Source: Paraspadella gotoi (lineage: Eukaryota; Animalia; Chaetognatha). Taken from it: a DNA stretch of 64,000 nucleotides. Below, one piece after another: positions 3,968 to 64,000 of the stretch; the first letter of the stretch is position 1, and every line of letters begins with the position of its first letter. The notes beneath the pieces are model-generated. The model saw only the letters and a program-made list of their open reading frames with translations. It ran no database searches and was not told the origin of the DNA. The translations under genes were made by a program, and so were the position numbers. Where the stretch lies: the NCBI GenBank assembly GCA_051294375.1, contig CM119269.1, positions 7,607,446-7,671,445 on the forward strand, written 5' to 3'.

Positions 3968-6900
3968 TAGTTTTTGATACATACAGTCATACTATTGGGC
4001 CGAATACAACCCAGGTTTACTTTTTATTTTTCTCATTTTTAAAAACATATCAGGTTTGAAAATTATTTTTTATTAATAAAGCTTTACTCCTAAGAAGAGT
4101 AATTTTCTTTACCTAGTGCGGTTAGTATATATGCAGTTGTAGCAATTATTTACATACCATTCCAGCATTAATGTGCTCTGAAAGGTCATTATTTTTATCA
4201 TCAAAGAAGAAATAAAAACGACGAGTATCTTCAGAGAAATGTAATCTTGGTTTTCAAAGATTGATTCTTTATTTCCGGGAACTAGTATTCCTGATTTAGT
4301 CGCTGTCTGTCATTCAAGTAACATTTCCCTTCTGTCTGATAAACCTTTTGTAATTGTTGAACATATTTAACTTATCATTTGGGTGTTTTAATGACGTCAA
4401 TTCTAACGTTTTAATTTCATACTAAAGCTAGGTACTTGTTAGATAAACTCTAATAATACTTAAGTAACAAAAAAGATAGCTATTTCGATAGTAGAAAACG
4501 GTTAGCCGTCAGTAATTATGTTACGATTTTTTACGAGTCTTTGCTGTTTCTGTTTATCCAATTTCTTCAGAATTAAATCCCAAAGATTGATTTTCAATAA
4601 AAAAAAAAATTCGAAGTGAAATAAATGAGTAGAAGTGAACGCCCAGAATGACGCGCTGTACACTCATTGTACACTGTACAATGAGTGTACAATGTACAGC
4701 CTCATTGGTTGGTGTAATCAACTAATATAATGAAATCAACTAAAATTTGTCAAAATTGGTCAATTATTTTTTTTAAATCCTACTTAATCCTAAACATTTT
4801 CAAACTAATTTAAATTTTTTAAAAAAATTTGCAGACTGTCATTTTTTGGGGATGGTATTTTCTAATTTGGATTTCAATAGAATAAAAAAAAATTATTTAA
4901 CGTTACATTTGAAAATAATTAAGAAGGCAACTAAGAAAGATTGAATTTTTACTATTTTACTAGTATTTTATCTTAATTGTACAATGTATATTCAAAACTT
5001 TTTTCTAGGCAAGTTGCGGTTTTTTTGCCTTTTTTTTTAGGAATGATAGTTTACTCTATTTTTATCTATTGTCGATAAAAATGTCGTATTAGATTTAATA
5101 TTTCCTTATTCTATAGTTTCTATGTTCGCTCGGTGCGAAGGAAGATTTCCCTTTCGTTGAAAAAAAATGGGAAAAGGCTGAGCGACTCCTTTCAACTCCT
5201 CCGAGCCAAGAATGTAGGGTTGGTTCTCTTTTTCTCTCTATCTCTGCTCTCGCTCGCTCTTTCTCTTCCGCATGCGGGGGCGCCAAATTGCCTCCTTCCT
5301 CCGTGCTGCCATCTTGGTTGTGCTACCCATGCTTTATTCACGTGGAGTTTGTTTGTGCTGTCTGGGTCTGAAGAAACTAGGTCAACTTAAAGAATTCCTT
5401 CGGCAAACCTCGGCGTGCTTCTCCCTCGCAATGCAACACTGTGTAACGGGTCTCTGACTTGGATATGCTGTCCAATCACGAAATAGCTTTAACGTAAGCG
5501 ACTAATGAGGCCCTCTGAAATTCCCACGTCGTCAAGCGGCGTAAAGATGATATTTTTTTCTCCAACGATGTGGCATCGTATTCTCTGGCCACGCTAGAGG
5601 TCAACGGCTTCTGTCAATAGCCCCTTATGTATATGCTTATAAACGGCGCCAATGTTCCCTTTTTTTGATGTATTTGAAGGAATTGTATCTTTGGTTATGT
5701 GTAATACTAGAGACAAATAGTAAGTGATTTTTGAGGCCCAAAAATTATTTTTAGGCCGTTCGCACAAATAAACAGCAAACAAACTTCGTCTTGGCTTTTT
5801 TAAATGTTCGTGTATATACCTTGCTTCTTATTTTCTATGCACCAATCATCATTTAACAATTGAGAATTATAGTCGGAAGTAATTCTCAGTAAAGAAATCG
5901 CGAGCACCGAATCGCGTGAAATTTCGCAATAAAATCAACCAATGGGAGCACATCTATTCCATTTCGTGGGCCAAGAATTTGTGCCGAGGTTTGCCGATAG
6001 AAATTCGATTCACCACGTGACAAGTCGAGAAAAGATGGAGGAATATCGAATGTGAAAAGACATGCTTTTTGCTACGGAATTAACAACGTGGTTTTACACT
6101 TAACAAGTATTACTATTTCGTACGTTCATTTGTTTGTTTTTCGTTAGACTCGAAACGAACAAGCCTTTTTACCACAGTTTAATCGACGAAAAATCATAGA
6201 ATCCTTTCGTTAGTCTCGACATGCAGTTTTATTGCGTCTTAAATGTCATTTCTAAATATTCCATCATCGAGTGTCCGATAAGTTTGGGTAACTGTTGCAA
6301 TCTTACTTCATTTAATTTTTTTAAAAAATGCTTTTTACAAACAGTAAACAAAAAGGAGTTTATCTGTCAGACCAGAAATGATAAATTGTTAGGGGTGCCG
6401 TTATTTATCTTCATTCGACTTGCCATTTCTTTTCAAAATCATAAAAAAAAATAGCTATTACTTCTTTATAAAGTTAAAAATACATTTTTTATATTTTCAT
6501 TTGGATGTTAAAAGCTTTTTCGAATATATGTCTTTATAATTTAATATGTATAATTAATATGATTGATGATAGATAAATAATCAGCCTCTAAAATGCATTT
6601 GTTTCCAAAGGGTGTTCGAAAGTTGTTTTTTTTTTTGAATATATGAAATTTGTACAACCAATATAAAATTATTCATTAATTTAATAACTGACTTTGGACA
6701 GGCTATGTCAAGATAATGACATAGCAGGTCTCTGTTCTTTTTGGTTAATAGGTTATACATTGAACGTATTAGGTAAAATCTTTTCTGATTACTCGATATT
6801 TTTTTAAAAAAGATAGGTGCTGATAAAGAGCTGCGTTGGGTGAAGAGGAAAGAAAAATGATTTAGCATCAAACCTAAAACCCTGTGGCCATGAGCTGATT

Positions 6901-8431
6901 AAGTCAATGAGTCACCTAATTTGGGCTAGTGGAGAATTGTGGAAAATGTTCGTGTGACAGCAAATATTTTTTTAAAAAAATCAGTAGTGCTTTTATTTTA
7001 TTCTTTGCTGTTCGGGCACAAAAACAATCTAAACCCTCGAGTCCTCTGGCATTGGCGCCAAATGTTCATTCAGTAGTAGATCGCCAATCTTATTGCGGAA
7101 TATCGTGGTTTTTTTTTTCTTTCGCAAAAAATCGACATCAACCTTTTTAAATGTAGTTTTTCCTCTTTCATCCGTTTTCTGTTTTTCGCGATTTCGAAAA
7201 ACTTTTGTTTCTCAAGTAATCAAACGGGGAAAACTTTTTACCCTCCCTCTCGGTACTGCTGATGATTTTGTAAATAAAATCTCGGTTTCCAATCGTCCCG
7301 TCTCGTATATTCGGGTCAAGATTCTATATTTTTATTTGCCATTCGTCACAACTGATTTGTCAAACGTACCTACCGTTGATTCGCCGAGTTTTTAACTTCG
7401 ATCGAATCCTTGTTTAAATACTTTCTTTTTTTTTTCTTTTAAGAGTGATTGATAGCATAACCTTTCGCACAGTTAAATCGGACGACCTCTCTCTCTCACT
7501 CTCTCTCTTCCTGTTTCCCTCAAACGTAAACAAGATCGCGATTAATATCCGCTTTATCCGACATTCTTCGCTTCGCCGCCGCCGACAACGACGACGACCG
7601 CCACTGAAAAACCACCACCTCCTCCTCCGACATGCTTAGCATTCTTTCGCCATGCGTATCAATAGACGAAATTCTCGATAGCCTCTCCGCGCTATGCAAG
7701 AGACGAAAAGATTTCTTTCTAGAGCGACACCCCTCCCCGCCACGCCCCTTTCTTCCTTACCGACCGGATTAGCGCCAACGGGGTAAACAAAAACAACAAC
7801 AAAAAACTTTCCCGCGAGGCCATTACTACCAAAAAAAAAAAAACTGGGGGAGGGGACCTGACTTCTCTCCCTTTCTCCCACACCTCTTTTAAAACTCTGA
7901 ATCTTGTCCGACTACCTCTCCGTCGGTTATCAGGGCCGAATTCCTTTCTCTCTCTCTCTCTCCCCCCTTATCTCCCTCCCTACTCCCCTCTCCCGTTCCT
8001 CTTGCTTCGTCTCTCTCACTTTTCCCGGGCCGTGTACGAAGGAGCAAAACGTTTTCACCTAAAAACACGATGTGAATCCCTAGCACCCTGTTCCCCCCCT
8101 ACACTCTATCTATCCGCCCCCAATCCTCGTTCCTCTCGAGCTCCGAAGATCCGTCACGGCGGCGCTCGCCCGCGCGCTCGCCCCGCCCTCTCCCTTGTGA
8201 AAAAAAAATAAGGGGAGTATAATGGATGAGAGGAGAAATTCTCGACGCACTCGTCGCGAATCATCGGCCCAGTGTCATCGTTTGGCGAGGGTATCGTCAC
8301 GATTCGACTGAATGGGAGACGAGGAGAGACAACGCGACTCGCGTCTTTTTCAATCTTGGAGAAATACCCAGATTCGGCCTAGGGTCCGACTCTAAGAAAA
8401 AAAGAGAAAAAAAAAAGAACTGCTGAACAAA

Positions 8432-11400
8432 ATGGCAACGAGCGGGTCGACCGGAGGAGGCGCCACGCATTCCTACGACGTCATCAAGTGCGGGTTCTTG
8501 AAAAAACAAAAGGTAATCTCTAAATGGAACTTTTGGTAAATTTTTATTCTTATTACCTCGTCTCTCTCTTTTTTTTTAGACTAACAAAAGTAGGTTCTTC
8601 GTGCTCCGCGGACCGACTCGGCCTTCGACGGCGGAAGGCGCAGCCGTCTTCCAGCAGCAGCGATCGCGTCTCGAGTACTACGAATCGGAACAACAGTATC
8701 GCAAAGGGAAACAGCCGAGAAAGACTTTCGTCCTCTCGTGAGTAATTAAAAAATAAGAATAATAATAATGATTAGTTTATTTCCGTTAGATTCCTCGCGT
8801 TTTTTTTGTTTTTGTTTTTGTTTTGTTTTTGTTTTGATGCCCTTCAGAGATGTAACTTTGGTAGCATAAGATTGTCATCTGACGACGTCATTGATGACGT
8901 CCTTATTTCTCCCTTTTTTTCTTCTGGAATTTTAACTTCTTTTCAACCTTTTCTTATTTATTTCCTCTTTTTCACCCGCTATTCCATTTCTCTCCCCTCT
9001 GCCCTCCCCCCTCCCCGAACAGTCCCTCGCTTCTCATCCAACGATGCGAGGACACTTCCGCCCGCGCGACGACTTCCTTCGGCATCTCTCTGATCATCCC
9101 GCCATCGAACAGCGCCTTCGTGATGCTGGCGGAGACGGAGCAGGAGCAGTCGGACTGGATTGCCGCCCTCAACGACGTCCAGGGCCTAAGCGTCAGCTCC
9201 ACGGAAAGATTCAGTGAGTCGCTTGGGTTTCGACTTATTTCGTTCCATTGTGTCCCGAGTTAACTCATTCGTGGGGCTGCTATTTTACCAAGATTGAAAA
9301 AAGCCTACGTTATCCAGCCGGCTGGATTAACTATACTTGCAGCATTAATTCTCATTATAATATTATTTGGTAAACAAAACCGACTAAAAAGAGCTGACTA
9401 AATCCTGCTGCTCCTTAGTTTTTCTGTATCCTCTCGCTCTTTCAATCTTCACCATTAACCCTAATTAATTAATTAATTAATTAATTAATTAATTAATTAA
9501 TCTTCACCATTCACCAAGCCTTCCCTATCCCCCGTCGCCTTTTCTTTTGCTAATCCAGAGCACGTTTGGGAAGTCAACGTGGTGGAGCGCCACGGTCTCG
9601 GAAGGTTGAATCTCAAAGGTCAATCTATACTCACGCTGACATCAACCCACATTCATCTGCGTCGCGGTAGGAATTCCAAATATTTATTACATTTTTTGGG
9701 CTTGCGAGATTTTTAAGATTTGCCCAAATAGTTGATTTACTTTTAATAATCTCAGTGAATTCTACGGTGGAGGTTTCATTTCCTCTTCGACATATTCGGC
9801 AGTGCGGAAGTCGTTCCGAGTTTTTCGTGGTGAGTAGATTTTTACCATGTCCCTCGCCTTTTTCCTTTGTGCCATTTCCTTACTTTTCCTTCTCTTTTCC
9901 ACTTTATTTTTTCAGTTCGAGTGTGGTCGCTTCTGCGATCACGGCGAGGGAGAGGTTTGGGTGACGGCGGAGGACGCCACCATCGCGCACAGCATCCACG
10001 AGACGACCAGCAGGTGTTGATAACGGGATGACGATTTTATTTATTTCCAAGTCTTTTGTTTTTTGTTCTTTAGCTCTTCCCTTCTTTTTCATCCACAGCG
10101 CCATGCGGTTGGAAAGGTCTCGTCAGGGCGTCGAGGAGCCGACGCAGCCTCGCTCGAGAAGCTCCTCGCAAAACGAACCCGCCTCCACATCCCTGTCCTC
10201 GCTGCTCATGTCTTCCTGGGGTCCCGACGCAGGTTTGACGTGGCGTCGTTGTGGGAATAATTTATTACGGATTAAATGTGTAATTTTTTATAAAACATTC
10301 ACGTATTTCAATCGCTGTTTTTGTTTCCGAAGGTCAACGGTCCGGGACGCTGCCACCGTCGCTGCGTCGTTCGGCTGCGTCGTCGTCAATGACGTCGTCG
10401 TCCTCTTCGTCTCAGGCGAGCCTCGTCGCGCCCAGATCGAGGACAATCTCCGACGGCGTCATCACCAGGTGGGTTTTTTCTTGGGGAAAAGAGGATCGCA
10501 GAAGGAAGGTTTGTAAAATCTATACAGAAAGCTTCATATTATAAAATGTGGTACCCCTTTTTTGTGACCAGAACACGTTCCGAGAAAACTATTGAATAGA
10601 TTTTAATGAAATTTGGTATGAACGATCCCTATGTGAATACAAATAGAAATATCGAGGCGAATTTCAATATTTGACCCCTGAGCCGAGATATGGGGCCCGG
10701 TAGGGGTCACTCATGGGGGCAAAAAATGGTCAAAATTTGTTTTTAATTTTTTTTTGGTTTGTTTTGAACAGTTGCCCAGACGTTTACTCTTCCACAAAAA
10801 TGTATTTATTTCTACAAAAATATTAGTTTACCATAAGTTTCAGGTTCATGAACATCAGCTGTTCAAGTCAGATTTGGAATAATTCTGAATAATTTGGAGA
10901 AAAACGATGAACCATGCATCTTCAAACACCGATTAATTAGCAAAAAATTTATTAATTTTAGTTTTAAAAAATATTTTTATATGTTTAAAACATCGATGAA
11001 CCTGATCCTACTAAAAAATTATAAAAAATGAAAAAAAAAATTTTAGTCCCAGGGTCCTGTATATTAAAATTCGCCTCGATAGTTCCATTTATATTGTCAT
11101 TAGAACTCTAAATGTAAAATGTTATGAAATTCGATCCGGTAGTTTGGTGGGAACAGATTCTGGTCACAAAAAAGGGGTACCACATTTTATAATATGAAGC
11201 CTTCTGTAATTGTTGTTTGTATAGATTTTTTATACTTTTTAAATGAACTTATTTTTATTATTATTTTCTCCAGTCCCTCGTCGCGTCATGAAAATTCTAG
11301 TCCCGGTCGCAGCGCTACCTCCACCGCTCTCTCCAACATTTCCGGTCATTCGGCGCCGCACGGAGTCGGCGTCGTCCCCGGGACCGCCGTCCCCACCGCC

Positions 11401-22334: not shown

Positions 22335-23882
22335 ATGTGCAAAAATGACGGTTCTGCGAGAAAGGCGAAATATGAAACGGTAAGTTTGTTGAAGGTCGAC
22401 TTATCTCGCTCTTTGTGAAAATAAATTATTGATTAAATCAATCTTATCAATTGCTTTTTTTAAAAACCACTCCCACATTTTCCTACTTTACCCCGCCGCA
22501 GTTTAAGCGGTCCGCCTTGCCGTCCAATTCGTCGCCGCTCGAGAACGGGAAACGGGCGGTGGAGGGATCCGCCCTTCCCGCCTTTCTCTTTCCGTCGGAC
22601 GGTTCATCGACGCAGGAATCGTTGGAGTAAGACTCTACGAGATTCTCCCTTCTTCCCTCGTTGTCTCGTCGTTTAACCAATTTCCTTTTACTCGCCTTTT
22701 TTTCGTAATTTTGAGTTCATTTCTGTGCAGCGGATCCGATGTTCTCTCGATTCACGCCTGTTGTGGACTGTCTTTGCTTCCTCCGGCGTTTAAAAGCTTC
22801 CAATACACGTACATTTTTTTTTGGTTACTTTTGAAGTAATGTCATGCTTTTCGCTTTTCAGTGGTTTTTTCGCAATGCTTGTTTTATTTCCGAATTGTTC
22901 TTGAAAAATTGTTTTTGGAGTATATACATTTTGAATATTTACATTTATAACGTTTAAAACGATTTATTTTTTAAAAAATGATTAATTTGCCCTAATTTTA
23001 GGAAGGATGCGTCCTACCATCAAAACGGCGAGAGTCAGGTCAACATTAAGAATCTCGATTTGAAAATCGTCAACAAAGCTTTGACTTCCTCGTGGCGGAA
23101 GGACCTTCCCCTGCTCTCTGTCCCGTAAATAAACTTGGGGCTGATATTTCGGGCTTTTTCTTTTTTTTCCTTTTTTAGTGAAAAATGTTCCTAACTTTTT
23201 CAGACGCGATCCAACGGATCGTAGAAAGAGCTGCTTGAGATCTCCCACAGACGAACCAAAGACGCCCAAGGCCGTTCAATTCGTTGACGAGAAAATCGGA
23301 ACTTCGCTGGCGCAGACCATCATTTTTTCCCGCCAATTCGGCGGAGGCGACGACGACGAGCCAGCTCAGCCCTCTCCATCCGCGGTCACGCCCCCTAGTC
23401 TCTCTGAAAGCCAAAAAGGGCGCGCCGCCAACGGGGAATTTCGCCGCGATTGGGCCGAGGTTCGCCGACGTTTGAATCGAGACGCCGTCTGCTTGGAGAG
23501 TCTAACGACGACGGGTAAACGCGCCAAAGGCCGCGTCGTGGTTCACAACGAGCACTACGAAAAGTCGGTTTCGGCGAGGTACACCCTCGACGGGTGGGCC
23601 TCGTATCGCGAAGCCGAAGCCAAGTACGTCTTCAACGGAAAATGGGGCGACTTCTACGACTGCTTCGAATTCGAGATCGAGGCCGGTGCGGAGAGAGGGA
23701 GACCCGAGGTGATCGTCGAGCTGGCCCTCCGCTTCGAGACCGGCGGACGAATCGCTTGGGACAACAACGACGGACGCAACTACGTCGTCGTCGTTGCCGA
23801 GGGCGGAAGGGAGTCGCACAAAGAAGTAGCTCAAGTTCCGACGACCCTCGACGAAGACTTCGGTGGCTTCATTTGGTATTAA
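22335..23882 (+). CDS. PPP1R3: Protein phosphatase 1 glycogen-targeting regulatory subunit (PPP1R3 family, CBM21)
   Basis: Phase-consistent exons 22335-22379, 22502-22626, 22731-22808, 23002-23124, 23204-23882. KSCLR and KAVQF (RVxF-like) PP1-docking motifs. CBM21 signatures VCLES, GRVVVHNEHYEKSVSARYTLDGW, WDNNDGRNY. AATAAA at ~23957. Confidence 0.9.
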
Positions 23883-38826: not shown

Positions 38827-41261
38827 TTTTTTGTGATATTCTCTCTTGACCCGTTGATGATGTTCTAAACACGAGGAAGCAGAATACGACAATGATTCAA
38901 ACTTGAATTAAACACGGCGAAAATGTTGAATGTTTTTAAAATGGAAACGCTTTTAGTTTTTTTATAGATTTGGTTCCTATTTCGATTTTTAAAAAAAATT
39001 TAGTTTGAGTGCGATATGTTTACAGCAAGGTTTTACTATTTTTTAGACCCAACTGTGATATTCGTGGTGGAGTTAAGCATTTTGTGAATGAGAGTTACAA
39101 TTTTTTTACAGAAAATATGAAAAGAAATGACGACGAAATAAAAATCATAAAAACTGCAGCCCACCTTCCCTTTTTATGTTTTTTTTTGGGGGGGGTGGGG
39201 GGAAATTCGCATCACCTTTTTTTGGCTCCCGTATATTGGTCTTCCACAATTGTCGCACGAGCTCGTGTCCATATTCCTTTGAGATTAATCAGTCGATGTC
39301 GGGATGCCTCACGTTGCCACCATTTTTAGCTATTAAAATTTTAACAATTTATATTATTTGTCCCTCCGAGGTGCGAATTTTTCTACCGTTGGTTTAAATC
39401 ATTCTTTTGAAAGTCGTCTCTTCATCGACTTCAAACATCGACGTTTGGCTGCTGAAATTTCACCGTCACATTCGATGTTTACAGATTTTTTTTCGGACCG
39501 TGTCATCAAAATTGTTGATATTCTTGTCTGTTTGAGATAAGGCCAATTGGCGTGATTTAAATAGCCACCAAATTTTTAATGTATTATTTTAAATAGACTA
39601 TATAGTTTCTATCAATCTAGTCTGTATTTAACACGAACGTGTTCGAAAGCTACGATACGCGTTAATCGCACCAATAAAAAAGGAAAAAAAAGTTTGGAAA
39701 AGGAACAATGTAATTGTGTACTGTTATGTGAAAGAACTTTGACGAGTTTACAATGAATCGTGGTTCATGACAACATTTTGGCCCTTTCGCATTATACATA
39801 TGAGTTAAAACAAACCTAGTTTTAAACAAATTTCAACTTAATTCTGGTTATTATTTCGAAAAACATAATTAGAAAGACGTAGCACTTGTAATTGGTCCTT
39901 AGATATGTTAAATTTCAGTATGTTGATATTGATTACCATGAGCTAAAATAGTTGGTTATAGTTTTTGTCAAAAATACTAGAAAATTTTATTAATTCTTTA
40001 AAAAACCTCATGGATCTTTTAGATTGAATTTGTTTCAATGAAAATATTTGCAAAAAATTGTATTTGTCTTATTGAAATCTAATTTCTTAGAGCAATTTAC
40101 TCTTTTTGTTGAAGTAGGCAATATATAGTATTTTTTTAAATCCATTTATGTAGAAAGGTTTAGAACTTCACTTTGATATTTAACTAAATATTCTTCTGCT
40201 ATACCTCCTATACCTTTCGATAACATAGTTGCAAAGTTCACCTTTTAAAGAATAATTTTGTATTTTTTCAAGAGTAAGGTTTGTGTTGGAGACCTTACGT
40301 AGAATGAAGAACAGGAAACGAGTAAACGAGTTTTAAGGATTGCCACATTTTAAGATTCATCAGCTTACTGAAAACGTAAATCTTAAATTTGTTAAATTTA
40401 AAAAATATATGAGCATCCATGCTTGATTTTTTCTCTGCATTATGCAAACTAAACTAAAAAACCGACTTCTAACTAATTTGTAACTAGTTTGAACTGACAG
40501 AAAGACTAAATACAAGAAAGTTATTCTTTTGTTGAGGATGAGTTGTCAATTGCATTTATGATTCAAAGATGACGCTCCAATTTAGTTACAATTGACTATC
40601 GTGTCTAGTTTTTTTTTTTTTTTTTTTTTTGGTTTTTTGAGTAACTTAATGACCCCAAAAACTCATAACGTTAGATTAAAATATGAAGCTAAAGGCTCAG
40701 CGTCTTTGAGTCTAACATGTACGCGACGTTGTCCACACGAAAAATTCCTCTTTAAAAAAAATAAACTTTCAAGTCGAAGTCAAAGATGGATTCATATTCG
40801 GTGGTGAGAGAATGTGTTGGCCTCTTCGTTCAAGGCGGGAATCCCACTCCGACTTCACCTCGATCACAACTCGAAATCTTGGCTCACTGCTCGGACAGTA
40901 ATCGTTCTCTGCTCGGACTTCACTGGTGAAAAGTTCACGCGGCTGCTCCGACCGAGAGGCTGCAAAGTTTTGGTGACCTCGAGCATTCGGGCCTTCTCTC
41001 GATTCGAGATCAATTTCGCCTGTTTTTATATTTCCTGCCCGTTTTTGTTTTCCGATTTTTTGTTATATTACTAATTCTTACGTAAACCACTTTACACCAC
41101 GATAAATTCTTTTTTTTTTTTTTGGCAGAAATTTTTTCCTACGAGCTACGAGCAAAGAAGTTTTAACTGTGAATTAACTCTGAACGAGAAATTCAAGCAG
41201 TTGAATTTTTTGCTACGTGGCAAATCGTCTACTATAAACTTGTTAAAAATAATTAAAAATA

Positions 41262-43889
41262 ATGGCGGATGATTGGGTGGACGAAGCTCCCGTCGCCAGC
41301 GCCTGGGACGGCAGCAGTGCCAGCGGTGTATTCGGCGGAGCGAAGGGAGGATTTGGTGGAGGATTTGGCGACGGCGGCTCCCGCGGAGGATTCGGTGGCA
41401 GCGGCAGCAGCAGAGGTGGATTTGGATCGTCCCATCAAAACGGAGGCTTTGGCGGAGGCGGTGGCGGAAACGCATGCCACCGATGCGGCGAAACTGGTCA
41501 CTTTGCAAGAGAATGCCCTCAAGGCGGTGGCAGCGGCGGCGCTAAGCCAGGTGGTGGATCAAATGTGTGTTACAAATGTCAAGAAGTCGGTCACTTTGCC
41601 CGAGAATGTCCACAGGGCGGCGGCGGCGGCGGAGGCGGCGATTGCTTTAAATGTCATCAACCGGGTCATTTCGCTCGTGAATGCCCCAACGACACTGGAA
41701 CTTCAAGCAGGTCCTATAATACCGGCGGCCGTGGTGGCACGGCCAAGTCCTGGAACAACAACAACAACAACACTTGGAATGGAGGAGACTCGAAAACCGG
41801 AAGCTTTAATTCCGTTGGCAGCAGCGTCGGCGGAGGTTGGGGCAACGACGCCTCAACTGACTCCTCGGCGTCCTTTTCCTCCACCGCGCCTCGTTATGGA
41901 TTCCCTTCTTCCGTGGGCGTCGATGGAACCGACTTTTCGGTGCCGCCTCCACCGAAAATCGGCCGCGGACGCGGCGTCCTCAAAAAGCAGTACGCGCCGT
42001 CGACAGTCGGATCTGGTGCCTCCTTTCAATCGAGCATGAGCGGCGCCGATCCCGGATTCGGTGGATTTTCCGGTAACGCCCCGGGATCCGGCAGCGGCGT
42101 TTCTTCAAGCGGATTTGGGACTAACTCTTTTGCCAGTTTTGGCAGCGGTGGTAATGTGGCCGCCAAAGACCAAGGTTCCGACGGTGGATTCGGCGATAGC
42201 TCCTTTAACGCCTCCCGCGCGAAGAATCCTAGCGGTGGATTCGGTGGCGGCGGCGGGGACAATACTTGCCGCAGCTGCCATGAGCCCGGACACATTGCCC
42301 GCGATTGTCCAAGCAAAGTGTGCCACAAATGCAAGCAGTCTGGTCACTTTGCCCGCGAATGTCAAGAAGAGGCCGTCCTTGACCCTTCCCGGCCGAAACC
42401 CGTCACCTACGTCCCGGAAGACGATGAGGGCACGCTGCAGAGCGTCTCTCAGGGCATTAACTTCGATAAATATCAAAACATCGCCGTGAAGGTGACCGGT
42501 ACCGATGCCCAATCCTTCGACCGGGGCGTCGACTCTTTCGAGGAGATGGACCTCTTCCCCGAGACTCTAAAAAACGTTAGGCGCCTCTACGCGAAGCCGA
42601 CGCCGATTCAACGACACGCCGTGCCCATCATCAACGCTGGGCGCGACCTCATGGCCTGCGCTCAGACTGGATCTGGCAAAACGTTGGCATTCATTCTGCC
42701 CGTCATCGGCGGGATCGTTCGCGAGAACCCGGCCGGCGGGTCCGCGGGCGTCGCCACTCCGATCGCCCTCGTCCTCAGCCCGACGAGAGAGTTAGCACGC
42801 CAAATTTACAACCACGCCAGAGAGTTTTGCCGGGGAACCGTCGTCCGGGCGGAGATGTGCTACGGAGGGACGGCGATCTCGGAGAACGTGCGCCGCCTAC
42901 CTGGCTGTCACATCCTGATCGCCACGCCCGGCCGCTTGAAAGATTTGGTTAACAACCGCCGCGTGGTCGACCTCTCCTCCATCAAGTACTTCATCCTCGA
43001 TGAGGCCGACCGGATGCTGGACATGGGCTTCGAGGATGAAATTCGAGCCATTGAGACAAGCGGGATGACGCCCAAGCAGAACCGCCAGACCCTTCTTTTC
43101 TCTGCCACATTTCCGGCCAGGATTCAAGAATTAGGCATGGACTTTATGAAGGATCATCTCTTCATCGCCGTTGGCATCGTCGGCGGCGCCAACACTGACA
43201 TCGAGCAGTCTATAATGCAAGTCTCTCAGCACGACAAGCGGGAAAAGCTGGTGGAGCTGCTGACGGCCTTACCGGACAAGCTGGTGCTCGTCTTCGTGGA
43301 GGCCAAGCGGCAGGCCGACTTCTTGGCCTCTTACCTGTCTCAATCCGAATTTTGTGCCACCTCCATCCATGGCGATCGCGAGCAACGCCAGCGCGAGGAG
43401 GCGTTGCGTGATTTCCGTTCCAAGCGGGCACCTATTCTCATCGCCACCAACGTCGCAGCCAGGGGGCTCGACATTCCCGAAGTGGAAATGGTCGTCAACT
43501 TCGATTTGCCGTCGTCGGCCGACGAATACGTGCACCGAATCGGGAGGACGGGACGCTGTGGTAACGTCGGCCGCGCCGTCACCTTCTTCGACGAGTTTCG
43601 AGATAACGACCTCTCGCTCTCTCGCGACATCGTGTCCACGATGCGACAGGCCGAACAGAATGTGCCTGAATGGCTCGAAACAATCGCCACCCAGCGCGGA
43701 GGCGGAGGCGGCTTCGGAGGCGGTAACCACGCCTCCGACGTCAGGCGACGCCGTGGAAGGGGTGGAAACGACGCTGGCGGCGCCGATGCGGGAAGCAACG
43801 CCACCGGAGAAGACAATTGGGACCAGGATGTTGGAGATTCGGTTGGATTTGGAGGAGGCGCAACAGAGGAGGAAGAATTATGGGATTGA
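41262..43889 (+). CDS. vasa: Vasa/DDX4 germline DEAD-box RNA helicase, single-exon ORF (875 aa)
   Basis: MADDW start, GGF/RGG repeats, five CCHC zinc knuckles, GINFDKY, AQTGSGKT, PTRELA, TPGRL, DEAD, SAT, ARGLD, HRIGRTGR, acidic C-terminus EEEELWD. Confidence 0.96.
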   Translation: MADDWVDEAPVASAWDGSSASGVFGGAKGGFGGGFGDGGSRGGFGGSGSSRGGFGSSHQNGGFGGGGGGNACHRCGETGHFARECPQGGGSGGAKPGGGSNVCYKCQEVGHFARECPQGGGGGGGGDCFKCHQPGHFARECPNDTGTSSRSYNTGGRGGTAKSWNNNNNNTWNGGDSKTGSFNSVGSSVGGGWGNDASTDSSASFSSTAPRYGFPSSVGVDGTDFSVPPPPKIGRGRGVLKKQYAPSTVGSGASFQSSMSGADPGFGGFSGNAPGSGSGVSSSGFGTNSFASFGSGGNVAAKDQGSDGGFGDSSFNASRAKNPSGGFGGGGGDNTCRSCHEPGHIARDCPSKVCHKCKQSGHFARECQEEAVLDPSRPKPVTYVPEDDEGTLQSVSQGINFDKYQNIAVKVTGTDAQSFDRGVDSFEEMDLFPETLKNVRRLYAKPTPIQRHAVPIINAGRDLMACAQTGSGKTLAFILPVIGGIVRENPAGGSAGVATPIALVLSPTRELARQIYNHAREFCRGTVVRAEMCYGGTAISENVRRLPGCHILIATPGRLKDLVNNRRVVDLSSIKYFILDEADRMLDMGFEDEIRAIETSGMTPKQNRQTLLFSATFPARIQELGMDFMKDHLFIAVGIVGGANTDIEQSIMQVSQHDKREKLVELLTALPDKLVLVFVEAKRQADFLASYLSQSEFCATSIHGDREQRQREEALRDFRSKRAPILIATNVAARGLDIPEVEMVVNFDLPSSADEYVHRIGRTGRCGNVGRAVTFFDEFRDNDLSLSRDIVSTMRQAEQNVPEWLETIATQRGGGGGFGGGNHASDVRRRRGRGGNDAGGADAGSNATGEDNWDQDVGDSVGFGGGATEEEELWD

Positions 43890-53065: not shown

Positions 53066-56000
53066 TCACTTCTCTCTCTCTCTCTTTCACTCATACACGC
53101 ATTTGTTTGTTTTATTGACTATCATCGCATCAATGAATGACAATCATCGCATCAGTGAATGACTATCATCACAGCAGTGAATGACTATCATCGCATCAAT
53201 AATTGATTATCATCGAATCAATAATCAATTCCTATTACATCAATAAATTACTATTACATCAATCAATTAGTATTACCTCAATCAATTACTAGTACATCAA
53301 CAATTCGTTATCGCATGATTCATTCGTTTTTTTCCCGGGTTTTTTCATTAATTTTCTTTGATAGTGGGCTCTGGCTCGATCTTGAGTCTTTTAAGATTTT
53401 TTTATTTTATGTCTCCTTCTCTCTCTCTCACTCTCTCTCTCTCACTCTCTCTCTTTCTCTCTCACTCTCCTCCCTCTTTCTCTCTCTCTCTCTCTCTTTT
53501 TATGCAATAGCGACGATCCTTATGCTTTTAAGATTTTTTTAACTTGCATCATTTTTTCAACTTGCATCATTTTTTCAACTTGCATTCCGTCAAAACTTTA
53601 TATCTAACTTCTTCACTCACTTTCCTACTGGCTCACAAAATTTCATCTCTAATCTATCATGGGTTAAAATAAATAAAAAGATTCAAGTAAATGTGACTCA
53701 TATTTTTTTCATTTAAACTCATTTCCACTGGTACGTTTCCACTGAAGCTTTATATCAAGCTTCGTCACACATTTTCCTACCCACACACAAAATTTCAACT
53801 CAATCTATCCATCCAATTATGATTAATTAGAGTATTTATTGGTTAAAATAAGTAAAAAGATTTTAGTAAATTCGACTTATGTTTTTTCCATTTAAACTAA
53901 TTTCCACTCACACGATTCCATCGAAACTTTATATCCAGCTTTATCACACACTTTCCTACTCACACACAAAATTTAATTCCAATCCAACCAGCCAATCACG
54001 AGTTATTGGAGCTTTTTGCTAAGATGGGACGGATGGACGGATTGATTGACTAATTAATTAATTATTGATTAATTTATTTACTAATTGATTAATTAACTGA
54101 TTAATTATTTGATTTATTAATACATCCTGCATATACATTTAATATAAAAGGAAAAAGAAGCATAATCAATTAGTAAAACAGGTTTTTTGTTTTTTTCCAT
54201 TTAAACTCATTTCCACTCAAACTATTCCATCGAAACTTGATTTCCTGTTCAATCACACACTTTCCTACCCACATACAAAATTCCAGGTCAATCAGCCCAT
54301 CCACTCATGAGCAATTGGTGTTCAAATAGTGAATATATTTTTTTTGTTTTTTCCATTTAAACTCATTTCCACTCGGACGATTCCATCGAAACTTCATATC
54401 CAGCTCAATCACACACTTACCTATCCTCACACAAAATTTCATTTAAATCCATCCATCCAATCACGAGTAATTGGTGTTTTTTGCTAAGGTGGGACGGACG
54501 GACGGACGGACGGACATCATTTTTTTTGCATAATTTATCATAATTCGATGTTCTGACATGATATAAGTGTGTGCCCGACAATATTGAGGGGGCGGACCGA
54601 CGGACCGAAAAAGTGAGTTATAGAGTCGGGATCTGCTGATAAGCAGATCCGACTAAAAATTGAAAATCTTATATTTTTAAGTGCTTAAAATGATTTTTAA
54701 TACCATGTTCTCAGTTTTGCAAAATTATTGAATGACAATAGATACCAAATTTATATATATTTTTTTATTTATATTATTTTTGACTAAGTTTTTTATTTCC
54801 TTCCATTCCTGCATTTTTTCCCCCATCTTCCTTTTCTATTAATATTAGTTTTTGCCCATTTTTTTATTTCCAATGTTATTTTTTCTTATTCTTTTTATTT
54901 ATCATTTATATTTATCTTTAGAAATTTAGCTTATTTTTTATTTTCTTTTCAGAATATTTTTATTCATATTATTTTTATATTAATTTCATCTTAATTTTTT
55001 TTTTAATAATTTTTTAACCATATTTAGGCGTTAAATTCCTTTCCAAACTTTTGTAACTTTTTTATTTCTAAAAATAGATTTTTTTACTGTATTATTAATA
55101 ATATAATAATTTTTTCACCTAATTATATAACAAATGTTGTAAACTCTTATTATTACTGAGTAAATTATCACTAAAACTTTATAAAAAGCATATTAGGTAA
55201 CACAGAATACTTACTTTAGAGGTGTTCCGTTTTACCTCAATTTAATTGTAGCTATGTAAAAAATAATTGAGTTATTTTTTTCGAAATAATGTATACAATA
55301 ACTAAAAATTAGTAGTCTCGTCTATCAGATATTAATATTCCATAGTCATATTACGTCAAATATGACTGACAGAGGCTTGAAAACGACTACTCAAAGACGA
55401 AATTTGACTAGCAGCTTTGAAATAACTGCTGCAGCTGCTGCAGCAGCAGCCGAATGCTGTAACTGCTGTAATGGAATGTCAAGTTGGTGAAATGTTAAAT
55501 GAACCCAAAAAAAATATAAAATATCTATACACAATTTTTTTATTTCATTTTATATGTCAGTGTTCCGAATTACCCGTTCCGAATTACCCCGCACTACCCT
55601 ATATTTTAATAGCTTTTGTGAATATTAAATACCACAATCTCTCACCCGTGAATTGTTCGTCACCGCGGAGGTAACGACAGGACCTTTAGTAGGCGAGGTA
55701 TACAGTCGATGAACGTCGTCACTGTTAGGTTGTTTCGTTCCTGGTTGTAGAGCATCACAGCTGTTGCCATCCGAAGAGTGGTTCGTGCCCGCCGCAGTCG
55801 GCGGGATTTTCATCATCTGCGGCGAAACGACGCCCTCTCGATCGCAGTTCAAAGAGGAGGGGCCCGACGAGACGGCGGCGCCGATGGAAGGCGTTGGAGC
55901 CGCCGGCGCCGTCGAGCCGTCGAGTAGGGCGCCGCCTTCGCGAGTCGTTCCACTACTAGCACCGTGACTCCGCAAAGGGATGGGGTACGGCGGCGGCGGG

Positions 56001-59000
56001 TCGTCGTCGCTGCAACCCGAGCCCGTCGCGACCGCCAAGGGTCGAGCGTCCGACTGTCTGACGTCGCGTATCACAGAAGCTGCGCTGAGCGAGGAAGGGG
56101 GAAGAAGGGAGGGGACGACGGCGCCACCGACGCCGCTGGGTTTCGGCGGCAATTGAGAGTGAGGAGCACCTTCGGTTCTCGTGCCTCCGGTTTTCCCGGC
56201 GACGGTGGGGTCGGCGGCGCCCACGGCGTTCTTGCCGGCGCCCGCCTTGGAAGGAGACGATCTATCCACGGCGCTCGTTTTTCGAACGTCGCCGTCCTTG
56301 GACGATGCCGGCGACGGACCGACGCCGGTGCCGAGGTGCGCGGCGCTGGTGATTGAGGAACGACGCGAAGGCGGGTCGTCCCCGTCCCCCGACAGGCAGT
56401 GCCCGCTGAGTTTGCGGCCGACGTGGCTCGAATCCGACTTGGGCCGGAGGCTTGACAGCGGCCCGATCGAAAAGATGGACATTCGGGATTTTGAGTTTTT
56501 TACTTTCGTCGATTTGCTGTCTTCGCTCAACAAGGATTCGTCTGTTGGGTCGAGGAGGGAGGTTATGGGATGGGGAGAGCAGGTTTAAAAGAGGGATTAA
56601 GATGGCGAGGCAGGGGGCGGGGGTAAAAAAAGTGTTTAAGAAAAGGCGAAAAAAATATGGGTGTTTGAAAAAGTTTGTTTTGCGGTACAACTAATTATTT
56701 CTTAATGAAAACTCGGTTTCGCAAAGTGCTTGAACCGATTTCGCGCCCGAAAATGCGAGAAAATTGTTTTGAGTGAAAGAAATTTTACGATAGCAACTAT
56801 GAAGAAATGTAAGGGAAAAAAGCCTGTTATTTGTCAGATTTTCAAAAGTTGACGCAATAGCTGAAAGTGTCAATAAATCGTTTATTAATAAAAGCGGCAA
56901 TCGATTTCAATCGTACAGGCGTTACTTGACGTAACAGGACAAAGCAAAAACACTGACAAAGAATAAAGATGAAAAAGAAAAATTTAAAAAAATCAAAGTG
57001 GTACAAAATCATGAAAAAAAATAATTACTGGATTTATCGACGGCATTTCGCCAAGGTTCAGTTTTTTTCACGAACTCGGGTTTGAATAGTAAACGAAGAA
57101 AAACATAAAAATTAGTAGCATTTAGTTTTAGCTTGGGGATAACGGCTTCAAACAATCCGAGTCCGAAGAATCCCCAGCTTTGACCCTTTACGTCTTAAAT
57201 TTGAAGAAGGGGGAGTACTTTAATTTCAAATTTTTGTACTTCACATGAAAGATGATAACGTTACGTCCAGTCGCCATGTCTCAAAGGCTGAACAACGGAA
57301 AACCGCTGCCTCTTCCCCTAACCACACAATCAGTCACTCACATCCTGGGTCCAAAGGACATTCCGCTTTCGACTTCCTCAACCTTTCTCGACTCTCTCGC
57401 GTGCAAAGACCGCGGTGCAAAGAACCACCGCGCGACCTTGCGTCGCAGTTTTCTCGCTTTGAAGGCAAGCAATCGGCGGAGACCGCCTCCGGCGCCGTTC
57501 TCACCGTCGGTGTCCGAATCGGACTGAAGCGGCGTCGCCGACACGATCTGGTTGATGGCACTCTGGTCGTCTTCCAGGTCTGCGCGCGTCGACACCATAG
57601 ATGGATTCTTGCCAATCTTGTTGAGGCGTTCCGCCGCCACGCTCTCCATCGTGCGCTTCATTATCGGATATTGGTCCAATATCTGAGCCACGTGGTAGTG
57701 ATGGGAAGGGTTAGAGATAGGTATGTGAGGATGGCATAGAGAGATAAAAGGGCGTGGAAAAGGGAAGAAAACATTGTTGGTGTTGTCTAAAAGAAGCTCT
57801 TGTCGAGTTAAATTTTGTGATTAAATGCCTTAATTGATATTAAGTAGTACTTTGTCGTTAAAAATCGAAATATCACCTGCTTGAAATGTTCCACCGACAA
57901 AGAGAACAAGTTACAATATGTTTCTGCTCGGACGCTGGCTACGCGTTTGGCATTCGTCAATAGACAAATTTCTGGAAAAGTCGAATTGCAGTGGAAGCAC
58001 GTGAATATAAAAAGCCGGGGTTATTATGAAATTGGTACAACCAATATAAAATTTATCCATTCATTTAATAAATTACTAGCCTTCCTGAATATTAAGTAAA
58101 TCACGATAAATTACCAAGGTTTCTTGTCAAGTATTGTGGTCGAAATGAAATAATAAAGTGATTTTGTGACTTAAAAACAAAAACACGTGATCAAAGCTCA
58201 TGCAATTTGATGTATAATGGCGATACTTTCCCTTCCCCTTTTTCGCGACCAAATTTACTTTCCATTCAAACTTTAACGGTTTTCTCTCACCTCCAAAGTA
58301 GGAGCCATCAGAAAGACTCGTTAAAACTTCATTCTCTTTGCTGATTACATCCACAACTCCTTCCTGTATAAAGTACATCTTCGTTCCCATCGTTCCCTCC
58401 TTTATGATGTAATCACCAGGCTGGAACACCTAGAGTAAAAAATAATAATGATAATTTAATTTTTTTCGTTTAGGCTTTTTAAAGTTTTTTTATTTTTTAA
58501 GGCTTACTTCAAACTTTAGTTTGGAAATGACATCCGTTACAAAGTTTGGGTCCGCATGAGTGAAAAATGGCACGGACTGGACGAGAGAGCGGCAGTTGAA
58601 GTTGATTACATCCTGCATAAATAAATGAGTCAGAAAAAACTCTGTTTATTCAATGTGCTATTCAAAGTGATAAAACATGGCTTCCAACCAACCTCTCTTA
58701 GGCAGGTTGACAATTCGTTCAGTATTGTTTCTTCGTCAAACATTTTTCCGCGAAAACGATGTTCGTAGTAGTCATTTATCTTTACTCGAAGTTCTCTAGG
58801 TAATTTTCTGAAAGACATGTATTCTTCGACTTGTTTTGTCTAAATATTTGGTTACCGATAACGATTAGCGGAGCGTGTTAGATAATGGATAATATCCGTA
58901 ATGGCAGCAATTAAAAAGAGAGTAGGAAGCCTTTTATTAATTAAGAAGCTTACGAAATTCTTGGTTAAGAAATTATACAATTAAGGTTTCGCCCTAAGTT

Positions 59001-62000
59001 TGAATCAACCTACAATATGACTCAAATGCTTTGTTTTAAAATGTCCTAAATTAAGGTTTATTTAAAGAAAAATAAAGGTCTATCTTATACGTAGCTCTCG
59101 GAAATTTTATATAATCGTATAACTTAAGCATTTTAGCCTATTTTGGTAGGTCATCAATTCAAGCGCAAGTTTAATAACGTTTTGGAAAACCCGTACTCTT
59201 TAGTTATTTCAATAATTGTTCGAGTTTTCCAATTTACTATTTAGAGATAAACATGACACCAACAGACAACAGCCAAAGAGGATGTAACATCAATCTGTTT
59301 TCTTTTTTGAAATCTTATTTTTTGGATCTGAATTAATATTAATAAAAGCAATTAGTTTGAAACATTTATTTTTCTAATTTTATAATTGCAAATTCAATAT
59401 AGATTAATTTGGGGTTTTAAGAACAAGATCTAGTTAGCATGCTATATAAAATTTTAAAATTTTCTGAATTATTTCTAATGACGTAAATCAACCCTATGCA
59501 TAAAATTTTGTTTCTGAATATTTCTAAATTTCATTTTTCTTGTAAAATTGGGAGGTTTTTTGGTTTGATTTAAAGTGCAAATGTCACTGGTTAAAATAAT
59601 TACTACAAGCGATAAAATATTGTAAAAGACGATGGAATCACAAAACAGAACGCCAAAGCATTCTCAACGTCAGTACCTGAATTAGTTTGAAAATGACGCA
59701 CTAGTGCAGGTGAGACTTTATAGACTACATTTAAAGGTTCAAGAAAAAATATTTATGTATTTCTTTAAATCTACCGTTTTCCTTATATAAAATAATATTT
59801 TTTACTTGAACCAAGGGATGTTACGCCTAATGGTTGGGTGATACTCCTGTAGGCTAAATGACATAACCTTTACCTTCTCATGGTAAAAACGACTTGAAGT
59901 GTCAAAAGATTGAATCATGGCTGAAGCGTGTGCCAGAAACAAGGCATAGCACGTAGCACCAACCATCATGGAAATGATTGTCAACCATACCTCTGATAGA
60001 AAGAGGAAATGTTTGCCGATTTATCATTTATTTATTAGCCGAAGTTATCTATTTCGGAGAGAACCCTTTTTTACCTGTGACATTTTGTGGGGGGTTCTTG
60101 CCATACCCAATACAAAGCATATGTGACAGGGCTTTGAAGAAAGCCCAGCTGTATTGCTCTAACCAGTAACTTTTCTATAATGATGAACGTCCATTTTGAT
60201 GATTGTTGCACATATTTTTAGTGTGGTGAATTTTTTCAAGCAATATATATTGTCAGAGGCGTTATTTTTATATTATTAACATCATTCAAAGCGGTCCGTG
60301 GGTAGTGTTCGGTGAGTTCAATTTGAAGTGATGAAAGGAATATAAAAAACAAGAAATAAAAAGCGAACAAAATTATATAGTGACAAGCGAAAGATGCGAC
60401 TAAAAATATTATTAAAAGATAATATTGTTCAATCCATCATTATAGTTATGCTTCCAATAAGAATTGGACAAAAATTTTTTTACAGGCCCGAGTTGTTTAC
60501 TTGTCAGACTTGAATTTTTTTTTTTTAAAGTAAAATTTTGAACAGATATGCCGTTTTCTAACGCCATCTATTTGAATTTTGAATTTGGAAAAGTATTTTT
60601 CAGGAATTTTGAACAAACAACCTAAATTTGTTGTTGGACATTAAAATGAATGGAAAACATTCAGTGTATAAAAAAAAGAAAGGTTATTAGCAGAAATATA
60701 TAGGGGCTATAATATTTAGTTTGTCGCATGCAGCAAAAGCTTTTTTTCTATTTAGAAGCTATAAAAGCATATCCATGTTACTTTTTATCGCCTATTTTAT
60801 GGTCTTATGATATATACTTAATTTATTTATTGCTCAATATTTTGCGCTTTTGTACTGTCTTGATGCCACTTAAAACCTAGCTTGTCTGCGCACAACACAA
60901 TAACACAAGGGACATGATGCACGGTAATGTGATAAATTTTGTGACGATATGCCAGAATGGGAATGGGGTCAGGGGTTTCGGACACAATGTCGGACATTCT
61001 GCTCAGCCGTTTTAGTAAATATTTTAAAAATTATCGGGCAAGGGTAAAATAAAATGAGAAATCATGCAGCTAGTCTTTCAAAATTCGTTGTAGCTAGTTC
61101 CATCTCTTTTATACGAGTGAATGTTTGCGCAACGGCGTTTTTAAACCTGCTTATAAAATTATTACTAGTAAAAATAGTTAAAGGTTTTATAATTAGTTAA
61201 TAATTCTTAAGGACGTGTTTAAAAACTCCGCGCTCCTGGTCATTGCTCTGTACGAGGTAAAAAGGGACCTACCTTCCCCCTGAACTGCCTCTTTGAGGTA
61301 TCAAACGACTGAATGAGGGCCGTGGCGTGACCCAAAAACAGCGCGTAACAAGAGGCGCCCACCATCATTGAAATGATGGTTAACCAAATTTCGGTTAGAT
61401 TTTGTGGTGGAAATTTCCCATAACCGATGCATAACATGTGCGATAAAGATTTGAAAAATGCCCAAGTATACTGCACGGCCCAATGTTCTTCCTGGGGGAA
61501 AGGGGTTGGGCATTGGAATTTAGGTTGGGGGAGTTGCGAACATTCCATGGATCGGGGTCGTTATTATGGTTTTTATGAGGGAATTTTCAGAAGAAAAATA
61601 ATATTTAAAAAAATGGGGGATGGGTGAACCACAACAGACGGGGTCACAATAGAGGCACAATGGTTGGACGGATGAAGACAATTACGAGCGTGCGATGGAA
61701 AAAAGGGTAAAAAATAGGGAGTTTTATTAAAGACAACCTATAATTAGTTTTCCACAAGCGACAATACTAATTTATTTTCTGCCAAAAAAGTTATGATGCT
61801 TGTCGCTTTGAAAAATAAGTAATTATGTATGGGTGAAGGTTATCAAATAATTTTCTAAATTTTATCTTCAATCAAAATTTTTAAATTTGAGTATTATATT
61901 GTGGTATTTTTAAAATGATTACTTTCCATCAAATATTGTATTAATTTTTATAAAAAATTATATTTTTTTTATAATTCGTGAACTTTAATAAGTTATTTTT

Positions 62001-63145
62001 AATTTTTCGTCAAAAGTTGAACTTTTTTTTTATTATACCGCTTCTTTTGCCATCATTCCTTCTATATTATTTTACAGAGATTTTGTAATGAAAATCGCGT
62101 GTTGTGAATTACTATAATAGTGGCTTTATTTTTTTTGTTGAAAATTCTTGTTTATATATAATATTTATTATTGTATCAGTTCTATTTACGAGTAAAAGTT
62201 TCGTTGAGAAAATTCTTTGGGGAAATATGTGATTTTTGACAAATGCAAAATTGGAAAAATTTTTCCTTATTTTTTGGGACTGATAATATTTTCTCCAATT
62301 TTGATTTAAATTTTTTGAAAGGTATGTACGTGACAAAATTTGAAGGACGAATCCAATCTGAAAGTTTTCTCTATGAGTTCATGATCTGAATAGGACCTAC
62401 GTATATTTTACAGGGGTTGTGTAAAGTGTGTCAAAGAATTTGGCGAATCTATTCGCCAAAATACCTACTAAGTTCATCTACACGATATAGCTACTTATTC
62501 ACGCCGCAGACATTTCTACATTTTCAGAAATAGGTGCTCGATTCGAAATACAAAAATTGTCATCTTTTATAAGCTTTAAATTAAATTAATGTTTAATTAC
62601 CTAGACCGATAAGTCTGCTCCTACTACCAGTGTCAAATCTTCGTAACTATTCCTTGCTCCGATTGCCAAAAGCGGAAGCACGAACTCTCGCAAAGTAACT
62701 CGAGGAACGGTGCTATATGAAAAAGCCCGTGAGAGATGGACGCCTCGCTTCCTTTTATTACCGCCGCCGTAATTAGTGAGAGTGCGAATGACGATTAAAG
62801 GAAATGGGGGGAGCAAGGGGATGGGGCAGAGGCGTCTTTCGACGGCGAGATAATTGAGTGCGTGACGCCGTGACGTGGTGCCAGGGAGGAAGAAGAGTAA
62901 TAGGGGGACGGTGGAAAGAAAACTACCTTTTCTTGAAACTGTCGCCTCGAAGTATCGAAGGATTGAATGAGAGCCGTGGCGTGGCCCAAGAAGATGGCGT
63001 AGCAAGAAGCTCCAACCATCATCGAGATAATCGTCAACCAGATCTCCGTCGTGTTCTGCGGAGCGCTCTTCCCGTAACCGATGCAAAGCATGTGCGACAA
63101 GGCCTTGAAAAAGGCCCAAGAGTATTGCTCTAACCAGTAAGCCGT
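49619..63145 (-). CDS. HCN: HCN (Ih) hyperpolarisation-activated cyclic-nucleotide-gated channel, 3' part (5' exons lie beyond the window)
   Basis: Pore cassettes at 63145-62927, 61491-61273 and 60174-60075+59992-59874. C-linker exon 58839-58693 ([27 protein letters not shown]). CNBD exons 58612-58508, 58429-58291, 57971-57877 ([22 protein letters not shown]), 57682-57505. Low-complexity tail exons 56541-55646 and 50488-49619. Splice phases are consistent. Confidence 0.95.
50840..51605. mobile_element. MITE family 1 copy (interior inverted relative to the 10525 copy)
   Basis: Same TIRs and TA flanks. Small insertion in the left TIR. Confidence 0.9.
52143..53400 (+). mobile_element. Nested Helentron-like element with tRNA-like segment, (CT)n and 22-bp tandem repeats
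   Basis: Ends TCGAGCCAG ... CTGGCTCGA TCTTGAGTCTTTTAAGATTTT. - strand A/B-box-like tRNA head at ~52565-52632. (GACTATCATCGCATCAATGAAT)n at ~53116-53300. Confidence 0.5.
53560..54659 (-). mobile_element. DINE-1-like element with (GTCC)n microsatellite and internal tandem repeats
   Basis: - strand TTTTAGTCGGATCTGCTTATCAGCAGATCCCGACTCTATAACTCAC hairpin end. (GGAC)n at 54492-54515. Four copies of (C/T)CATTTAAACT(C/A)ATTTCCACT units. Confidence 0.6.
59874..60174 (-). CDS. HCN: HCN pore cassette C (two exons 60174-60075 and 59992-59874; 100+119=219 nt)
   Basis: [33 protein letters not shown]^[40 protein letters not shown], all splice sites AG/GT. Confidence 0.9.
61273..61491 (-). CDS. HCN: HCN pore cassette B (219 nt)
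   Basis: [79 protein letters not shown] acceptor, GTAGGT donor. Confidence 0.92.
62927..63145 (-). CDS. HCN: HCN pore cassette A (219 nt)
   Basis: [79 protein letters not shown] acceptor, GTAGTT donor. Confidence 0.92.
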
Positions 63146-64000
63146 CTGGGGTTCGAACGAGTAAGAGGAAATGGGTGGGGAAGCGGTTGAGCAAATGCGG
63201 TCGCCGAGGGGAGAGGTTGAGAATCGGTTCCGGGAATTAAAATTGTTGAGATTAGATGAAAATTTGGCTTAACAACTAGGAAATGAGAAGACTCTAATAA
63301 GTGATCACTGATCAGTCATTTTTTAATGCGTTTTTTTTTTTGATTTGTCAAAATGACTGACTTGAAATTCACGCCCGTAAAACGGCGTTTTTGCCGAAAA
63401 TTATTAAAGTTGATTTATTTTGTGAAATTTTAATTTCATTCCATTTCTCTGTAGTCTGTATTTTTTCTCTTTTCGACCTTTTCCAGAACTTCCTGCGCTT
63501 GCTTTTCTTTTTATATTCCCTTCGCCTTCGGAGTCTCTCGTGAGACTTCTCTTTTGACACCTCGACCTATTTCTTGCAACTTGTAATTTTTATTGTCGTC
63601 GTCGACCCCACTCACCAAACGATACTCTTCCTTCCGTAGGGAAGGGAGAGAACCCGGTTACCATGGCACGAAAGTAAGAATTGCGGTTCCTTTGTCCGTC
63701 GTTCAGCCGACGCTGTTCCTTTAGTTTTAACCTTGAACTGCTCTTCGGCGACTACTGACATCTACCGCGAATCCATGCGGAGAGATGGTGGGGCGAAGAA
63801 AAAGTGAACAAAAGATTGATGCTACGATGCCGTTGCTGCGGCAACGGGAATTTAATACTATCGTAAAAATATTATTGTAGTAAAAAGGCCTGTGTTTGGG
63901 GAAAAATAACGGTTAATATCTAACAGAGGGATATCTTTACAAATATTTTAGCGAATTTCTTTTTCTTTAAAATTTCATGTTTTATTTCAGTTCGTGTGGA

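Follow-up and report, generated by a model that had tools for sequence, protein, structure and literature searches.

Vertebrates diversify their HCN pacemaker currents with four genes, and many invertebrates diversify HCN by splicing. The PIIH variants of lobster, which Ouyang et al. are said to have cloned in 2007, reportedly arise by splicing of the P-loop/S6 region and have changed gating, and alternative splicing of the pore-forming region of lobster Shaker was reportedly described by Kim et al. in 1997. The Shaker case resembles that of the window (the whole 64-kb stretch of DNA analyzed here) in that the pore region is spliced, but it concerns another channel family. Tandem exon duplication with exclusive splicing is recurrent in channel genes, as stated in a source whose available part names flies and mammals and does not mention HCN. 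As far as that part of the source goes, the fly and mammal duplications are recurrent and exclusive, whereas in the window a whole pore module is triplicated. No paper in the collection searched describes HCN pore exon swapping in its title or at the start of its abstract, an absence that reflects only that collection.

The closest parallel to the locus in the window is provided by decapods, in which the HCN (Ih) pore variants I and II differ by a swap of the 73-residue exon that is triplicated in the window, and of nothing else. The members of all four RefSeq isoform pairs that were compared are equal in length, and the 10 residues at which they differ from each other all fall within the 73-residue block. 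The XP_ records are predicted models, and the genus names were completed from partial names:

Decapod pair, Panulirus: XP_071548477/XP_071548479
Decapod pair, Cherax: XP_053632939.2/XP_069941625
Decapod pair, Palaemon: XP_068215101/102
Decapod pair, Macrobrachium: XP_066956710/700

The second pore type is carried by 3 of the 14 pore-bearing members of the Panulirus cluster (among the 15 of its 31 members listed) and by 3 of 13 in a second cluster. Two genomic read-throughs (P0003 and P0281) contain the two decapod pore copies side by side, and the UniRef names among the homologues include 'splice variant A-I'. The view, expressed in an earlier sequence-only reading of this DNA, that whole-pore exclusive exons are not known from HCN is not supported, since this exon, with identical borders, is what the decapod isoforms exchange. 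The two systems are nevertheless not identical: decapods have two copies with 10 differences, whereas the copies in the window number three, have 14-19 differences and include one that an intron interrupts, and a lineage signature (QSFDTS versus QSLDSS) separates the decapod and window cassettes.

Other exons of HCN genes are duplicated as well. The decapod isoforms P0030/P0142 and P0143/P0145 also swap an exon at the start of the domain that binds cyclic nucleotides (CNBD), of which two versions were seen. The annelid-like locus L003 has one pore exon and tandem duplicates of the S5 and/or C-linker exon (3299-3490, 4485-4637, 8121-8270 and 8339-8485), and one pore exon with a duplicated S5 and/or C-linker exon was also observed in the annelid-like L002 (2-142 and 1228-1380) and L001 (1496-1645 and 1702-1848). 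Such S5 and C-linker exon duplicates in other invertebrate HCN loci indicate that the HCN gene duplicates exons readily.

In the window, the 73-codon HCN pore/S6 exon is present in three tandem copies, A, B and C, all on the minus strand, and each of them encodes the HCN pore helix and CIGYG filter as well as S6 and the beginning of the C-linker. The exons of the locus are as follows:

62927-63145, minus strand: pore cassette A, 219 nt, phase 0/0, Ion_trans_2
61273-61491, minus strand: pore cassette B, 219 nt, phase 0/0; in run X9, the upstream S5-side exon is spliced to its acceptor
60075-60174, minus strand: first of the two exons of pore cassette C, 100 nt, encoding the pore helix and filter; C-type relative P0464
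59993-60074, minus strand: internal intron of cassette C, 82 nt, GT-AG, phase 1, after ...QNVT
59874-59992, minus strand: second of the two exons of pore cassette C, 119 nt, encoding S6 and the C-linker start
58693-58839, minus strand: shared C-linker exon, 147 nt; in X9, its donor is spliced to 58612
58508-58612, minus strand: shared C-linker/CNBD exon, 105 nt; tblastn match and X9 splice
58291-58429, minus strand: shared CNBD exon, 139 nt; cNMP_binding; spliced to 57971 in X9
57877-57971, minus strand: shared CNBD exon, 95 nt; tblastn match and X9
57338-57682, minus strand: CNBD C-helix and C-terminal exon; stop at 57338, or a possible internal donor near 57504

Cassettes A and B have no internal break and no stops, and are preceded by AG and followed by GT. 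Cassette C spans 301 nt (60174-59874) and gives 73 codons only when the 82-nt GTAAAA...TATCAG intron is taken out (100 + 119 nt). Introns of 1435 and 1098 nt separate the cassettes, and all three, when spliced, are 219 nt long, a multiple of three. Three 73-codon phase-0/0 cassettes with intact splice sites and without stops had been described previously, and this is correct for A, for B and for the end points, while C conforms only after the removal of an intron that had gone unstated.

That the locus encodes an HCN channel is indicated by the CIGYG filter followed by S6, and by a downstream C-linker and cyclic nucleotide-binding domain with 80% identity to the nearest HCN over 200 columns. 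The best PDB matches are HCN4, HCN3 and HCN1 (E 7e-28 to 1e-23). When nine full-length HCNs were compared with the window by tblastn, three pore copies and one C-linker/CNBD exon set were found, with E values per pore copy of about 1e-22 to 1e-36, far past chance. The same search revealed no C-linker/CNBD pieces between the cassettes and no S1-S5 exon anywhere in the 64-kb window, in agreement with the earlier claim of a single C-linker/CNBD set and of nothing from S1-S5 or CNBD between the cassettes. Any of the cassettes, joined in silico with the downstream exons, yields a stop-free frame of 295 residues. The upstream S5-side exon is known from its end, which is a loose end of an X9 contig. 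At the other end of the gene, the C-terminal exon had no match above 0.9 in an Atlas search, and alternative HCN C-termini are likely. A further low-complexity C-terminal exon extends from 56541 to about 55646 on the minus strand; one X9 contig starts at its AG acceptor (56541) with 30 letters from elsewhere, and a second leaves this exon at 55644. The donor near 57504 would join it in frame.

We consider it highly probable that the window contains one HCN gene with three tandem pore/S6 exons, of which likely one is spliced into each message, giving three subunits of equal length with a common voltage sensor and a common cAMP-binding domain. The upstream S5-side exon would be joined to one pore cassette, with the others skipped, and then the shared C-linker/CNBD exons would follow. 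Cassette C would act as a two-exon cassette, A and C may be used in other cells or stages, and the choice of a cassette would be strictly exclusive. As all copies are 219 nt and the intervening introns are 1435 and 1098 nt long, exclusivity can be imposed neither by frame-shift decay nor by steric clash, and would have to come from regulated splicing factors or RNA pairing. A crude search of the cassette flanks for docking/selector pairing gave no clear signal: words shared between flanks were at their longest 7-9 nt, and 2 of the 11 best duplexes outscored every one of the shuffles, of which there were only 8, in both cases by a margin of 1.4 kcal/mol, which was not taken as a signal.

Transcript evidence comes from run X9, in which spliced forms are present and whose status as RNA is the guess of a tool; our reading of its splicing is based on the 8 of 18 contig pieces listed. 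The canonical minus-strand intron 58692-58613 is spliced out in X9, and the loose end at 58291 is the next exon (57971). One X9 contig has a loose end of 195 letters behind 61493, of which 30 letters read, by hand translation, as SSWVSLNELK into EEHW of cassette B. As the SSWVSLNELK stretch resembles the end of the preceding exon of HCN homologues (VAINELQ), and the sequence encoding it is absent from the window, the upstream exon can join B directly, with A skipped, a junction seen in one contig of one run. Cassette A occurs in X9 in the unspliced form only, and cassette C is hardly covered (depth 0-1.4), an absence of cover that we did not count as evidence. The X9 contig over 58692-59343 is unspliced through the 58839 acceptor. 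At the low depth of X9, the upstream junction was thus seen for one of the three cassettes (B) and the downstream junction for none of them; among the junctions that the sequence-only reading would expect in RNA, the one from the upstream exon to 61491 was found, and those to the acceptors of A and C, or from any cassette to 58839, were not.

The same data bear on the possibility of alternative cassettes without strict exclusivity, so that some messages would include two of them with the frame kept and would give misfolded or dominant-negative subunits tuning the number of channels. Cassettes that are multiples of three and introns of more than 1 kb pose no obvious bar to co-inclusion, and the donor junction of B is not among the X9 pieces listed. 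However, the single junction seen in X9 skips A, each of the decapod RefSeq isoforms listed carries one cassette, and purifying selection on each full cassette (see below) fits a working pore. Moreover, with two pore-S6 units in a subunit, the CNBD should end up on the wrong side of the membrane. We therefore regard the inclusion of two cassettes as improbable, and favor the splicing of one cassette per message.

In pairs, the cassettes are identical at 54-59 of 73 residues and at 144-156 of 219 nt, and only 27-30 of 73 third codon positions match. Synonymous sites are saturated (pS 0.91-1.01) while pN is only 0.12-0.17, and the pN/pS ratios of the three pairs are 0.124, 0.139 and 0.168, with bootstrap upper bounds of 0.20-0.25, indicating purifying selection on all three pairs. 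The claim that the cassettes vary at synonymous sites and keep the protein, for which pairwise ratios had been proposed as a check, is thereby confirmed. Judged by their sequences, the three pore-exon copies are old and intact and probably functional, rather than dead duplicates.

Relatives of each cassette were found in environmental contigs. P0449, of A-type, is identical to A at 53 of 55 residues. The B-type relatives P0435, P0428 and P0466 are identical to B at 73/73, 72/73 and 32/32 residues, respectively, and the C-type relatives P0464 and P0465 are identical to C at 53/55 and 40/42 residues, and both match the 40 residues of the second exon of C. P0464 retains an interruption, an intron read-through, at the same place as the 82-nt intron of C. 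The relatives' cassettes are each on separate short contigs (565-2578 nt), and the intron flanks or read-throughs of the A-, B- and C-type cassettes are unlike those of the window, as if these contigs derived from related species, with the residues typical of each cassette conserved there. A metagenome scan gave five HCN loci, all of them from other lineages than the window's and without a duplicate of the pore exon.

If B alone were used, and A and C were dead or dying duplicates, one would understand why B has the sole junction in X9, and why C has the longest branch and several rare residues. Such a decay is, however, hard to reconcile with the A-C pair (pS 0.91, pN 0.13), with the lack of stops and the intact splice sites, and with the near invariance of A- and C-type sequences in contigs with differing introns; we consider it very unlikely.

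The locus is also intact as assembled. The comparison with sequencing runs covered four of 11, namely X1, X5, X6 and X9. One Logan contig of run X1, which may be the source sample itself, corresponds to 58044-64000 with no differences and flat depth, and spans all three cassettes; runs X5, X6 and X9, from two other studies, contain cassette-plus-intron pieces with 0-2 differences. These results uphold the earlier view that the array is not an assembly artefact. An origin of the cassettes from separate HCN paralogues, mis-joined in the assembly or used via distant exons, has in its favor that the window lacks the upstream exons and that the sole spanning contig may come from the source sample, but it is about as improbable as the decay of A and C, given the lack of S1-S5 or CNBD exons between the cassettes, the separately assembled contig with no differences, and the matching pieces from two other studies.

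In summary of the splicing evidence, adjacent homologous copies of equal length and phase, with splice sites (in C once the internal intron is removed) and with purifying selection on each copy, are as expected of mutually exclusive exons in structure and selection. The proposal of interchangeable exons, advanced from the sequence, is supported by this selection, by the B junction skipping A, by the A-, B- and C-type cassettes found elsewhere and by the contiguous assembly; as to junctions, the support extends to B only. The three-way HCN pore-exon switch is probably real and functional, and its principle is not new.

The filter CIGYGK is identical in A, B and C, and thus ion selectivity should be alike. 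The cassettes differ at 21 of 73 positions, which cluster at 1-9, 27-35 (the outer vestibule) and 67-72 (the C-linker start). Cassette C alone has G54A and T57S, at S6 pore-lining positions equivalent to HCN1 G391 and T394 (offset 337), both of which are among the nine pore-lining residues named in the available part of PMC6345760. From these substitutions, we predict that what distinguishes the isoforms is mainly their gating, their coupling to cAMP and their sensitivity to blockers, and not selectivity. The phrase 'different pores and gates', applied to them before, is probably apt for the vestibule, the gate and the C-linker coupling, and not for selectivity; the isoforms might also mix in heterotetramers, as suggested in the same earlier reading.

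In a tree of 27 rows and 73 columns, A, B and C group with a B-type relative in a single clade (92/88), which lies on the spiralian side, apart from arthropods; the tree labels scorpionlike, echinoderm, vert_b, Ciona and Crassostrea were assigned from partial names. A quick tree of 80 rows agrees (SH-aLRT of the window clade, 92). In AU tests, made on only 73 columns and with groups named after the tree was seen, two groupings were rejected, namely A with type I of decapods (p 0.016) and B with arthropod type II (p 0.021), and the grouping of A+C with type I was not (p 0.061). In the C-linker/CNBD tree, the window sequence lies outside the arthropod clade (95/90), among other invertebrates without a firm place. 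Descent of the window cassettes from the decapod I/II duplication was not recovered in the orthology test. Since the cassettes of the window group with each other and not with the decapod pair, their triplication is probably a convergent event, independent of the decapod duplication.

A broader proposal is that a non-arthropod invertebrate lineage independently built a three-way whole-pore HCN switch and kept it across species, with a two-exon cassette of changed inner gate and C-linker start as the third option, conferring clearly different gating or cAMP coupling. We put this forward tentatively, as somewhat less likely to hold in full than to fail in some part. If it is true, the HCN pore exon, with decapods included, is a repeatedly evolved splice switch that offers a natural pore-swap series on one voltage sensor. 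Three pore/gate modules on one sensor and one cAMP domain are natural chimeras that bear on the role of S6 and the C-linker start in inverted voltage gating and in cAMP action, and the decapod parallel is a further instance of exons in ion channel genes being duplicated convergently. The enforcement of exclusivity could also be usefully studied in a two-exon exclusive unit with long introns and no frame penalty.

Several other features of the window were observed. An X9 contig of 3503 nt with a depth of 284 (3-12 in its neighbours) starts at 63343, where the genome has an A-run, at a distance of about 200 nt upstream of cassette A. The region 63343-64000 is at single-copy depth in X1 and has no ORF longer than 65 codons, and a search of 55000-64000 against Rfam gave no matches; the contig is probably an abundant transcript inside an HCN intron. 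On the plus strand, an X9 contig skips the 67 nt of 58435-58501, with GTAAAA...TTTTTAAG ends, inside the minus-strand HCN intron 58507-58430, which may reflect an antisense transcript that is spliced and was merged into the contig during graph assembly. Short ends of very high-copy repeats lie at 58025-58073 and 55400-55610, with hundreds of contigs in each of X1, X5, X6 and X9. Farther away, 41253-43889 on the plus strand encodes, in a single frame of 878 codons, a Vasa-like DEAD-box helicase with five CCHC zinc knuckles and Gly-rich repeats, whose best identity to named sequences is about 55-58%, and 23145-23882, also on the plus strand, is a CBM_21 domain gene similar to a glycogen-targeting phosphatase subunit.
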